Source: a virus (Duplodnaviria > Caudoviricetes). Taken from it: a stretch of 56,999 nucleotides of DNA. The position numbers and the translations under genes are program-made. The stretch lies in IMG/VR virus record IMGVR_UViG_3300019872_000003, positions 1 through 56,999 of that record; one strand, 5' to 3'. Every line of letters starts with the position of its first letter. Positions within the stretch are counted from its first letter, which is position 1. Below, piece after piece: positions 21,952-23,611 of the stretch. The notes beneath the pieces are model-generated. The model saw nothing but the letters and a program-made list of their open reading frames with translations. It made no database searches and was not told the DNA's origin.

Positions 21952-22198
21952 CGATGACCTCGGTGTAACGGTCAATGACATCGAGCTCGAACCATGCACC
22001 CGGTGCGTACACCTTCAGCACGGCTTCGTTCTCGTCGTTGATGATGAGCATGCCGATGTCCGTCGTGCCGAACGATCCGACGTTGACGAACTCCTCGTTG
22101 TCGTAGTCCTTGTCCCGCACCGCGACAGTCAGCAAAACCTTCAGCGGAGTCGGTCCGTCTTCGGGGTGGAACGTGGCGGCTACCTTGTCACTCATCAT
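21941..22198 (-). CDS. Hypothetical protein
   Basis: AGAGG RBS; packed between the deaminase and polA. Confidence 0.6.
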   Translation of the reverse strand: MMSDKVAATFHPEDGPTPLKVLLTVAVRDKDYDNEEFVNVGSFGTTDIGMLIINDENEAVLKVYAPGAWFELDVIDRYTEVIVED

Positions 22199-22655
22199 GC
22201 ACCTCTACTGTGATCCCGCAGTCCCTCATGAACTGCAGCGTTGCGTCTGGGTTGCGATGTCCGTCACGCGCCCAGTCAATCCTTGTGACGACACGGCGTA
22301 TCCCGCTGTTCGCCACGAGCTTCCCACAGTCCCAGCACAGCATGCTGGTGACATAGAGTGTGCCCTTCTCGTACAGGTGTCGATCGGAATAGATGAGTGC
22401 GTTGGCCTCAGCGTGCACGGACACGCAGTTGCCGTACGACTGTGTCTGCTCGCCGGTCATAGCGCGCGGGCAGTACGTGTCGCATACGTCCTTCGTTGGG
22501 AAGAGCGCAGGAGGACCATTGTAACCCGTGGCGACGATGCGGTTCTGCCGTGACACGATGACGGCTCCGACCTGTCGCATAACGCACGGCGAACGATCGC
22601 CTATCGCCTCTGCGACCAGCATCCAGGTCCGATCCCATGATGGTCGCTCGGTCAT
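22188..22655 (-). CDS. dCMP deaminase family protein
   Basis: RPSWD, RSPC..RQVGAVIV, TGYNG, HAEANA, CWDC. Confidence 0.9.
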   Translation of the reverse strand: MTERPSWDRTWMLVAEAIGDRSPCVMRQVGAVIVSRQNRIVATGYNGPPALFPTKDVCDTYCPRAMTGEQTQSYGNCVSVHAEANALIYSDRHLYEKGTLYVTSMLCWDCGKLVANSGIRRVVTRIDWARDGHRNPDATLQFMRDCGITVEVHDE

Positions 22656-23611
22656 CCGATGTAGCCGCACTCGAGGCAGGTGCCCGCTTGGTTCGACATC
22701 TGGTCGTTCCTGACGATGTACCGGCAAGAAAGACATTTGAACGAGTCCAGCGACACGTGCGGGTGCAGGGTGTCGTAGTACCACGGGTCCACGATGTCTT
22801 CGCTTCCGCGACGGTACGAGCCACGGACCGCGACCTCGGCTGCTGTGCGGCAGACCATCAGGCGGGTCAGCGGATCCTCACTGACGTAGCCGTCCATGTT
22901 CCGCAGTGGTGCGAACGACGGAGGCGTGAAGCGAGGACCACCGCGCTGCACGAGGATCGACTCTGTCGCCAGCAGGTTGCTGTCATAGATGTGCAGGCTG
23001 TCCGCCATGTGCGTGTACGTTCCGATCTCGATGCCGAGGCAGTACGCCAGCGTCATCTGCAGACGCGTGAACATCCATGCATCGTACGGCAGTCCGAGCC
23101 AGATGTCGTTGGACCGCATGTGCGTCGTCATGTACAGACGATCCTTGCGGATTGCGAACCCAAGACTGATCGTGCAGGGCAGGTCCTTCGTCTCGCGACG
23201 GTTGTCGTCCGGACGCCAGATGACAGCGTGCGCCTGCCGCGTGTCTGGATCGTCTGAGAGCTTCGTAATCAACGGGCCGAGTTGGTTGTACAGCCGCGGT
23301 CCGTACGCACCGCGTAGCCGCCCTCCGTCGGCGTACCGGGAGAAACGTCCGCTGCTGGCTGAGTCCAGCTGCGCCAGATCGGAAACACCCGCGATCAGCT
23401 GGGCCGTCTCGGCTGCGCCGATCTTCCTGTTCAGCTTGCGACCCACCGCCGTCGGTACGCCGTTCTCGGGGTCCTGCACAACGATCGTCGCATCACGGAC
23501 CTCTCGTGTTGCGAGACCTCGAGGTGCGGTCTTGTCGCCGTCGCGGATGACGGTCCACAGGATCTCGACGTACCCGTCCTGCAGGTCTTCTACGTAGAAC
23601 GTCCTAGCCAC
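22652..23611 (-). CDS. Thymidylate-synthase homologue of dCMP-modifying type (hydroxymethylase/hydroxylase/methylase) with C-terminal Zn ribbon
   Basis: AYGPR, DTRQA, DLPCT (Cys146), MRSNDIWLGLPYD (Asp177 where ThyA has Asn), SLHIY; CxxC...CxxC tail. Confidence 0.88.
   Translation of the reverse strand: MARTFYVEDLQDGYVEILWTVIRDGDKTAPRGLATREVRDATIVVQDPENGVPTAVGRKLNRKIGAAETAQLIAGVSDLAQLDSASSGRFSRYADGGRLRGAYGPRLYNQLGPLITKLSDDPDTRQAHAVIWRPDDNRRETKDLPCTISLGFAIRKDRLYMTTHMRSNDIWLGLPYDAWMFTRLQMTLAYCLGIEIGTYTHMADSLHIYDSNLLATESILVQRGGPRFTPPSFAPLRNMDGYVSEDPLTRLMVCRTAAEVAVRGSYRRGSEDIVDPWYYDTLHPHVSLDSFKCLSCRYIVRNDQMSNQAGTCLECGYIG

Follow-up and report, generated by a model that had tools for sequence, protein, structure and literature searches.

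We analysed a linear IMG/VR record of 56,999 bases from an actinophage-like, uncultured virus (IMGVR_UViG_3300019872_000003; hereafter the window), with a G+C content of ~0.62 and an estimated completeness of 84%, the left half of which is a minus-strand arm for replication and nucleotide metabolism. Our subject is a pair of adjacent genes in this arm, one for an enzyme of thymidylate synthase (TS) fold and one for a deoxycytidylate (dCMP) deaminase. We favour, with some reserve, the reading that the first is a folate-dependent deoxycytidylate 5-hydroxymethylase and the second a supplier of dUMP, much as in phage T4. The part that concerns the TS-fold enzyme is the firmer: judged by its residues, it very probably acts on dCMP to give 5-hydroxymethyl-dCMP (5hm-dCMP). 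The pairing of a dCMP-type TS homologue with a deaminase is itself already known, from T4 and from cytosine-modified metagenomic phages.

Active-site residues and fold of the TS-fold enzyme

The match to the Pfam family Thymidylat_synt (PF00303) covers residues 14-220 (4.6e-20; 72.3 bits against a cut-off of 24.3). Equivalents of the TS-superfamily residues Cys146, Glu58, Tyr94, Arg166, Asp169, His207 and Tyr209 are all present, in invariant columns; the key residues of the window enzyme are E68, Y103, R125, D143, C146, T147, R166, S167, D169, D177, H207 and Y209, and in alignment with E. coli K-12 ThyA the numbering of the two proteins coincides at C146, R166, S167, D169, G173, H207 and Y209. 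An initial annotation of this DNA had placed Cys146 in DLPCT and an aspartate at position 177. Both are where it put them: Cys146 lies within KDLPCT (codon 23176-23174), and Asp177 lies within RSNDIWLGLPYD (codon 23083-23081), in the column held by N177 of E. coli ThyA. Conservation was counted over the best 120 of 841 homologues, with D143, C146, D169 and R125 found in all 120, and D177 and S167 in 119. Since the diagnostic residues are fixed in 119-120 of the 120 homologues, they are no product of chance.

Three of these positions bear on substrate and product. First, residue 177 follows a published rule by which Asn reads uracil and Asp reads cytosine (PMC13326640, PMC5175136, PMC8670742, PMC6400193); Asp177 of the window enzyme aligns with Asp179 of T4 gp42 and Asp186 of the CMP hydroxymethylase MilA, and Asn is found there in phage SP-10, a ViI-like phage and E. 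coli ThyA. Second, at the position three residues before the catalytic cysteine (position -3) ThyA has Leu; hydroxymethylases have an acidic residue, Asp or Glu, which activates water for addition to the exocyclic methylene (PMC13326640, PMC6400193), and the T4 D145N mutant forms no 5hm-dCMP (PMC6400193). The window enzyme has Asp at -3 (KDLPC; Asp143), as do T4 gp42, MilA and SP-10; E. coli ThyA has Leu, and the enzyme of Xanthomonas phage Xp12 has Asn. Third, the preference of MilA for CMP is due to K133 and A176, and its A176S/K133R mutant favours dCMP (PMC5175136); R125 and S167 of the window enzyme align with these two residues. Most likely, then, these signatures specify cytosine and not uracil (Asp177), hydroxymethyl and not methyl (Asp143), and deoxyribose and not ribose (Arg125/Ser167). 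The initial annotation had proposed a dCMP-specific TS homologue, no ordinary ThyA; the 177 rule supports this, and Asp143, Asp169 and Arg125/Ser167 sharpen it.

The reading that would take the Pfam match at face value is an ordinary thymidylate synthase that makes dTMP from the dUMP provided by the deaminase. Phage relatives are indeed annotated 'thymidylate synthase', and a TS-deaminase gene order is metabolically sensible. However, where ThyA has N177, L143 and H147, the window enzyme has D, D and T; the seven NCBIfam ThyA equivalogs that matched all scored far under their cut-offs (best TIGR03283, 80.1 bits against 174.55); and the ThyA-type C-terminal tail is absent in alignment with the Xp12 enzyme and E. 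coli ThyA. There is very little chance that the enzyme is of this kind.

The best PDB sequence match of the TS-fold enzyme is MilA (5jnh, 3.4e-25). Its AF2 model (pLDDT 94.8, pTM 0.93) gave MilA as the top Foldseek match as well (TM 0.72 over ~303 columns, which include the extra C-terminal helical domain), followed by the HY126 hydroxylase (9iqc, TM 0.59/0.79) and ordinary TS structures. This likeness in sequence and structure, C-terminal helical domain included, is what could be said for a MilA/BcmA-like CMP hydroxymethylase that makes a free hydroxymethylcytosine metabolite and no DNA precursor. The exchange of MilA K133 and A176 for Arg and Ser, as in deoxy-specific enzymes, and the position of the gene between a deoxynucleoside monophosphate (dNMP) kinase and a DNA polymerase in a phage make this extremely unlikely.

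HY126 represents the second-best structural family, and a flavin-dependent 5-hydroxy-dCMP synthase of the RB69 gp48/HY126 AfhB kind, feeding an ether-linked glycosyl-cytosine, would share the fold, Asp177 and the acidic -3 residue; a sugar nucleotidyltransferase gene in the window would also suit it. By the published rule, however, these flavin-dependent synthases carry D169N, as is seen when the HY126 hydroxylase (9iqu) is aligned, and the RSND motif of the window enzyme keeps Asp169, like every one of the 120 homologues. We regard a synthase of this kind as very improbable.

A dCMP methylase of the Xp12 kind needs closer weighing. In that case the deaminase would turn 5-methyl-dCMP into dTMP, giving a two-step route to thymidylate alongside a 5-methylcytosine (5mC) genome, which would be compatible with the DNA C5-methyltransferase described below. 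Asp177 alone in a ThyA background yields a dCMP methylase (cited in PMC8670742), Xp12 has TS, dCMP deaminase and dihydrofolate reductase (DHFR) genes in a row, in-cis deaminases of such systems have been proposed to make dTMP from 5-methyl-dCMP (10.1101/2024.12.05.627091), and the -3 rule is correlative, with few assayed enzymes behind it. On the other side, the -3 residue of the window enzyme is Asp and neither the Asn of Xp12 nor the Leu of E. coli, and T4 loses hydroxymethylation with D145N; the ThyA tail that Xp12 keeps is missing; no DHFR gene was found in the record (~84% complete); and the closest solved relative is a hydroxymethylase. We consider methylation of dCMP by this enzyme decidedly unlikely.

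The deaminase

The deaminase carries H81-A-E83 and C107-x2-C110 (zinc/catalytic motifs) together with G44-Y-N-G47, a motif that in the S. mutans enzyme we take to belong to the allosteric nucleotide site. It scores 53.2 bits against PF00383 (cut-off 25). Its closest PDB matches are the S. mutans dCMP deaminase (2.6e-14), T4 cd (4.6e-12) and human DCTD (8.1e-12), with enzymes of cyanophage S-TIM5 and a chlorovirus as further relatives; all of these are dCMP deaminases. The true start is the ATG of the ATGA junction and not the GTG at 22784 given by the list of open reading frames (ORFs), since from its first residue onward MTERPSWDRTWM lines up with the beginning of the S. mutans dCMP deaminase. 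The overlap that the initial annotation saw between the two genes is real; it is also routine, since 4-nt ATGA or GTGA overlaps occur in 10 of the 42 neighbouring same-strand ORF pairs of this genome, and overlaps of any kind in 16 of the 42 (rough gene list). Such a junction is commonplace here.

On present evidence this is an ordinary-looking dCMP deaminase, and we think it likely, going by these matches, that it acts on unmodified dCMP. The same annotation had described the pair as two enzymes aimed at cytosine C5. This is imprecise, as the deaminase acts at C4; the second C5 enzyme of the window is instead the methyltransferase (9283-10719).

Gene order in related loci

We compared 13 distinct loci with a relative of the TS-fold enzyme (L007, L009 and L013 being one sequence); searches of viral and metagenome contigs with the single protein and with a 13-sequence alignment yielded no more than 1, 4 and 5 loci. 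A megablast of window positions 20000-26000 against the phage collection gave no match. Two of the 13 loci, in SP-10 and Yersinia phage CAU_YEP3, hold Asn177 dUMP hydroxymethylases with no deaminase match in their 2.5-kb flanks, and two more are short contigs (L016 and L017) with a methylase-like signature and no deaminase match. The synteny statistics rest on the other nine, which share both Asp residues with the window.

In seven of these nine (DSL-LC01, GodonK, MW202510, L010, L011, L012 and L014) a deaminase and then a family A DNA polymerase (PolA) follow on the same strand, with the deaminase of GodonK and L011 lying several hundred bases to ~1 kb past the TS match and not abutting it. 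By tblastn, the PolA of the window is 40-47% identical to the polymerase that comes after the deaminase in L002, L004, L010, L011, L012 and L014, and 24% identical to that of L006. L007 has ThyX in the deaminase slot, followed by PolA, and L015 has a family 2 glycosyltransferase (GT2) there. Since the same slot holds either dCMP deaminase or ThyX, both of which serve dTMP supply, it is most simply a thymidylate-supply slot. It is because of the synteny in seven of nine loci, together with the ThyX of L007, that we favour a T4-like role for the deaminase.

Published neighbourhoods show the same association. In MetaGPA, a TS domain with Asp177 and a residue other than His at 147 marks modified-cytosine contigs and co-occurs with dCMP-deaminase and PRA-PH domains (PMC8670742). 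Of 149 deaminases on modified contigs, 104 have a TS gene no more than 3 kb away, compared with 17 of 277 on unmodified contigs, and TS is the commonest deaminase neighbour in modified contigs, followed by PRA-PH and DNA_pol_A (10.1101/2024.12.05.627091). A survey of phage glycosyltransferases likewise found the dCMP deaminase annotation to be specific to TS-containing pathways. The pairing is thus not unusual: it is the arrangement of T4 in kind and, by the counts just given, the commonest deaminase neighbourhood in cytosine-modified metavirome contigs.

Some of these loci deserve mention in their own right. The enzymes of L002 (Actinomycetia phage DSL-LC01) and L004 (Gordonia phage GodonK) are annotated 'thymidylate synthase' despite Asp at both -3 and 177, and going by these residues the DNA of both phages may carry modified cytosine. 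L016 (898-1413) and L017 (472-936) are groundwater-type contigs with a distant TS homologue that has Ile at -3 and Asp at 177, the signature to be expected of a dCMP methylase and not of a hydroxymethylase. The PolA of L007 (12306-14960, +) is interrupted by an intein that includes an HNH endonuclease (matches to Intein_splicing, Hint_2 and HNH_3).

The substrate of the deaminase

A different product would result if the deaminase worked on what the hydroxymethylase makes, turning 5hm-dCMP into 5hm-dUMP, so that a base derived from 5-hydroxymethyluracil (hmU), perhaps glycosylated, would replace some or all of the thymine. Cytosine would then stay free, at least partly, which would remove the conflict with the C5-methyltransferase, and the uracil-DNA glycosylase (UDG) superfamily domain on the kinase could relate to uracil-type bases. 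There is also experimental precedent for phage deaminases beside Asp177 TS homologues that favour 5mC or 5-hydroxymethylcytosine (hmC) nucleotides: when cells were fed hm-dC nucleotides, 5hm-dU was produced with 7 of the 90 in-cis deaminases, and of 194 soluble candidates assayed in vitro on single-stranded DNA, 34 were selective for 5mC (10.1101/2024.12.05.627091).

Several observations speak against it. First, in that study the partner of every one of the seven in vivo positives was a predicted 5-methyl-dCMP synthase, a prediction that assay bore out in five cases, and never a hydroxymethylase, and the in-cis deaminases of 5-methyl-dCMP systems were proposed to be producers of dTMP. Second, hmU phages such as SP-10 and ViI-like phages use an Asn177 dUMP hydroxymethylase directly. 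Third, the deaminase slot of L007 is filled by ThyX, a maker of ordinary dTMP. Fourth, contigs with an Asp177 TS and a deaminase have been recovered by selections for modified cytosine. Finally, no hmU-processing genes were recognised among the ORFs scanned. We therefore hold replacement of thymine by this route to be unlikely. Deamination of a modified dCMP had been put forward in the initial annotation as one way out of the C5 conflict; its precedent stands, in 5-methyl-dCMP systems only, and for the present pair it is disfavoured by the ThyX of L007.

The operon and other candidate pathway genes

Coordinates are collected in Table 1. From the kinase to PolA the overlaps between successive ORFs are 8 nt (kinase stop and hydroxymethylase start), 4 nt, 11 nt (deaminase stop and the 85-aa ORF) and at most 59 nt, the last taken from a rough ORF list and open to shortening by an internal PolA start. 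Because successive genes overlap in this way, we treat kinase to PolA as one tight operon. Next on the arm are genes for an HNH endonuclease, an SNF2 helicase, a PD-(D/E)XK nuclease and an AAA_24 protein. The ~434-aa protein, the RmlA-like nucleotidyltransferase and the dUTPase_2 NTP pyrophosphatase (NTP-PPase) follow after them, and the C5-methyltransferase and a primase-polymerase/D5 helicase are at the end of the arm.

Table 1. Positions of the genes and features discussed, in window coordinates
Feature	Coordinates	Strand	Matches and remarks
ParB-like DUF6551 protein	24942..25715	-	just upstream of kinase; 1-2 small ORFs (24476-25008) between
Two-domain dNMP kinase, 284 aa	23604..24458	-	phrog_761 2e-15; Pfam Thymidylate_kin weak, 2.5e-4, under cut-off
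TS-fold enzyme, 319 aa, predicted deoxycytidylate 5-hydroxymethylase (5hm-dCMP synthase)	22652..23611	-	PF00303
Cys4 tail of hydroxymethylase, putative zinc ribbon	22667..22735	-	C293-x2-C296 ... C312-x2-C315
ATGA junction: hydroxymethylase stop TGA / deaminase start ATG	22652..22655	-	
dCMP deaminase, 155 aa	22188..22655	-	PF00383 2.9e-14; phrog_174 'dCMP deaminase' 8.8e-40
85-aa ORF between deaminase and PolA	21941..22198	-	no Pfam match
Family A DNA polymerase (PolA)	20197..21999	-	end of kinase, hydroxymethylase, deaminase, PolA order
~434-aa protein, large Pfam-less family	13223..14527	-	
Protein with RmlA-like sugar-1-phosphate nucleotidylyltransferase N-terminal domain	11763..13259	-	PF00483 9.6e-18
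All-alpha NTP pyrophosphatase, dUTPase_2 family, 164 aa	10716..11210	-	PF08761 6.1e-11; phrog_18650 2.3e-45
DNA cytosine-C5 methyltransferase, 478 aa	9283..10719	-	PF00145 4e-18; TIGR00675 3.7e-11

Judged by its model, the kinase is a fusion, with residues 1 to ~160 resembling SPbeta YorR and thymidylate kinases and residues ~163-284 having a UDG-superfamily fold. Residues 1-144 match YorR in the PDB (2axp, 1.3e-4). In VIA-align the AF2 model (pLDDT 94.9) matched 2axp with Z 16.5 over residues 2-177, and residues 163-284 matched UDG 1l9g with Z 10.6 (rmsd 2.8, 119 aa), 2d3y with Z 9.6 and UdgX 6ail with Z 9.4; the UDG-fold match came from this wide search, and a Foldseek search of the PDB with the same model returned kinases only. 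Both domains are covered to at least 85% in 42 of 69 homologues, and the two-domain kinase stands directly before the hydroxymethylase in five related loci.

The dUTPase_2 NTP-PPase is a candidate dCTP- or dUTP-clearing enzyme. It ends in a Cys/His-rich tail (CPSCH...C...H..C), and would be a second pathway enzyme with a possible metal-binding tail. Of the two candidate sugar genes, which are neighbours, the RmlA-like protein matches glucose-1-phosphate thymidylyltransferases in the PDB (to 1e-11, residues 2-109) and may supply an NDP-sugar. The ~434-aa protein (434 aa in its database form) belongs to a family in which 685 homologues, out of 8000 candidates that were scored, reach E<=0.001, and had no Pfam, PHROG, NCBIfam or PDB sequence match; its Atlas features match Glyco_trans_1_2 clusters (0.95, 181 shared features), a language-model lead, and hhalign to T4 beta-GT gave a probability of only 5%.

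The Cys4 tail and endonuclease VII fusions

The extra C-terminal CxxC-CxxC domain that had been noticed in the TS-fold enzyme is there, with the spacing CxxC-15-CxxC, and it proves to be common in the family: when the best 120 homologues are aligned, the four cysteines recur in 101, 101, 92 and 83. Because they are kept in most homologues, the tail is a family trait and no peculiarity of the window gene; more distant members, for example those of DSL-LC01 and L015, lack it. In this putative zinc ribbon the AF2 model places short strands at residues 290-292 and 298-301 (blocks 28-32 with pLDDT 89, 97, 97, 93 and 86).

In 28 of the best 120 homologues an endonuclease VII domain follows the Cys4 motif, the long forms reaching 400-450 aa. 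The hydroxymethylase of L007 (9983-11224, +) is one case of such a nucleotide-modifying enzyme fused to a nuclease, with a PF02945 endonuclease VII match (1e-18) at residues 328-400.

The C5-methyltransferase and a possible partial replacement of cytosine

The methyltransferase has the motifs FGGG, PPC (with the catalytic Pro-Cys), RxR, QGFPD and GKGVP and is seemingly intact. Its gene overlaps that of the NTP-PPase by GTGA. The initial annotation had pointed to a paradox, namely that a DNA C5 transferase would have no substrate if all cytosines were modified at C5 beforehand. This was a fair observation, and the gene order recurs in L007, where C5-methyltransferase, PRA-PH NTP-PPase, kinase and hydroxymethylase are contiguous with overlaps (7288-11224, +). 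The pairing of this methyltransferase with the pathway is seen in two loci only, the window and L007; MW202510 too has a methyltransferase upstream of the module, of the generic Methyltransf_23 class and distinct from C5 DNA methylases.

The plainest answer to the conflict would be that cytosine is replaced only in part, which, contrary to what had been supposed, is not unusual. The suggestion that the C5 enzyme acts on hmC found no support. We also looked for a TET/JBP dioxygenase, which would provide a second, post-replicative route to hmC, and found none (no Tet_JBP (5mYOX/TET dioxygenase) match in the record at E<=1). A ParB-like DUF6551 protein is encoded close upstream of the kinase (Table 1), and ParB homologues have recently been found to activate phage thymine dioxygenases (PMC13229309). 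We considered the Pfam-less ORF 7300-8019 as a dioxygenase and set it aside; Atlas points to a winged-helix protein (scores <0.9, lead only). Avoidance of palindromes could be an indirect mark of unprotected DNA; the tetranucleotides CGCG, CATG, GATC, GGCC and CCGG are moderately under-represented in the window, and each is present hundreds of times (CGCG 331 observed against 479 expected).

The hydroxymethylase, the deaminase and the C5-methyltransferase could also be parts of one system that gives a mixed genome, in which the deaminase accepts 5hm-dCMP as well as dCMP. Both hmC and hmU may then enter DNA, or the replacement of cytosine may be deliberately partial, with the methyltransferase marking the leftover cytosines. 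The Cys4 tail and the UDG-fold domain of the kinase may tie nucleotide synthesis to DNA or the replisome, and one or other of them may help to tell modified from unmodified DNA. We think such an integrated system quite unlikely.

Three features look like minor novelties: the Cys4 tail and the endonuclease VII domains joined to it, the UDG fold on the kinase, and the C5-methyltransferase that travels with the pathway. In the literature searched, at the level of titles and listings, we found no description of a kinase-UDG fusion, of a zinc-ribbon/endonuclease VII extension (Cys4/endonuclease VII fusion) of pyrimidine hydroxymethylases, of a travelling C5-methyltransferase or its pairing with a TS homologue, or of hmC in actinophages.

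A proposed pathway

From the sequence signatures, fold, conservation and synteny observed above we infer the catalytic activities, what becomes of the product and how far cytosine is replaced, as follows. Cys146 would attack C6 of dCMP, with Asp177 reading and protonating the N3/N4 face of the cytosine and methylene-tetrahydrofolate giving the one-carbon unit. A water activated by Asp143 would then add to the exocyclic methylene, so that the products would be 5hm-dCMP and tetrahydrofolate, not a methylated nucleotide and dihydrofolate. The kinase encoded upstream would phosphorylate 5hm-dCMP toward hm-dCTP, the all-alpha NTP-PPase would clear the competing triphosphate, and the family A polymerase would build hmC into phage DNA, possibly with glycosylation afterwards. 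Meanwhile the translationally coupled deaminase would divert part of the dCMP pool to dUMP, from which host thymidylate synthase would keep dTTP supplied. The cd enzyme of T4 supplies dUMP for thymidylate.

If this is right, the virus and its relatives, which include the cultured phages GodonK and DSL-LC01, swap cytosine for hydroxymethylcytosine before replication, probably with further decoration, and this would bear on restriction and CRISPR escape, on sequencing behaviour and on the annotation of the whole phage group. The logic of the pathway has been established in T4 and in metavirome screens; what is gained here is better annotation and a set of side questions.

Observations that fit the proposed pathway less well

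Several findings count against the pathway as just set out, or at least against too close a copy of T4. First, the conflict at C5 is a real one: an intact C5-methyltransferase is unexplained if C5 is fully pre-occupied. Second, T4 Ser94, reportedly conserved in the T4-type dCMP hydroxymethylase family and required for activity (PMC6400193), falls in the column of Gly101, invariant in 120 homologues, with a loop alignment that may be off by one; because of this exchange the arrangement that activates water may differ from that of T4. Third, identity to gp42 is 20%, gp42 structures fall outside the best 60 of 124 PDB matches, and the window enzyme is closer to MilA and to the dUMP hydroxymethylases than to gp42. 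Given the unmatched Ser94 and this low identity, we would place it in a MilA/SPO1-like hydroxymethylase branch with a cytosine-reading Asp, and not in the T-even family in the narrow sense.

Fourth, specificity for 5-modified cytosine is polyphyletic among dCMP-deaminase homologues and follows no published sequence rule (bioRxiv 10.1101/2024.12.05.627091), so the substrate of the deaminase cannot yet be read from its sequence. Fifth, neither ThyX nor DHFR nor a second TS-family gene turned up in the record, but as the record is ~84% complete, little weight can be put on missing ThyA/ThyX, DHFR and Tet_JBP genes. Sixth, a GT-B-type glycosyltransferase identity for the ~434-aa protein is a lead only.

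Comparison with known systems

The T4 set comprises the gp42 hydroxymethylase, the cd deaminase, the gp1 dNMP kinase, the gp56 dCTPase and glucosyltransferases. The window appears to encode a kinase, an NTP-PPase, a dCMP deaminase and possibly a sugar nucleotidyltransferase and a glycosyltransferase. At the level of the enzyme, the likeness to gp42 lies in the catalytic Cys, the cytosine-reading Asp (T4 D179), the Asp at -3 (T4 D145), the Thr after the Cys and the lack of a ThyA tail. Apart from the low identity and the Gly in place of Ser94, the window enzyme differs in its MilA-like C-terminal domain and Cys4 tail, both absent from gp42. The genes are contiguous and overlapping in the window, whereas those of T4 are scattered, and in the window no phage TS or DHFR was detected and a DNA C5-methyltransferase is present.

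MilA of Streptomyces rimofaciens (PDB 5jnh, 5b6d), the best match in sequence and fold, shares Asp at both diagnostic positions. It differs in having K133/A176 where the window enzyme has R125/S167, and it serves an antibiotic pathway in a bacterium, outside any phage replication operon.

The MetaGPA neighbourhoods (PMC8670742; 10.1101/2024.12.05.627091) are alike in gene set, in adjacency and in the change of residues 177 and 147 (D and T in the window). They are unlike in that the NTP-PPase of the window is of the dUTPase_2 and not the PRA-PH family, and lies 11 kb away beside the C5-methyltransferase.

Xp12, with its 5mC genome, shares Asp177 and a dCMP-deaminase homologue immediately downstream, the two deaminases being 32% identical over 118 aa, and its enzyme served as the 5-methyl-dCMP-forming positive control in 10.1101/2024.12.05.627091. 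In contrast to the window, with Asp at -3, no tail and no DHFR found, Xp12 has Asn at -3, the ThyA tail YNPKPEVIE and a DHFR gene following.

The dUMP hydroxymethylases of SPO1-like and ViI-like phages, represented by SP-10 and CAU_YEP3, belong to the same branch as the window enzyme (31% and 24% identity), with Asp at -3 and long C-terminal extensions, but they have Asn at 177 where the window has Asp, and neither of the two loci shows a deaminase match in its 2.5-kb flanks. The 5-hydroxy-dCMP synthases (RB69 gp48, DLP3 gp80 and HY126 AfhB; 9iqc/9iqu) share the TS fold, Asp177 and an acidic -3 residue, and are set apart by D169N and a bound flavin, whereas the window enzyme keeps Asp169.

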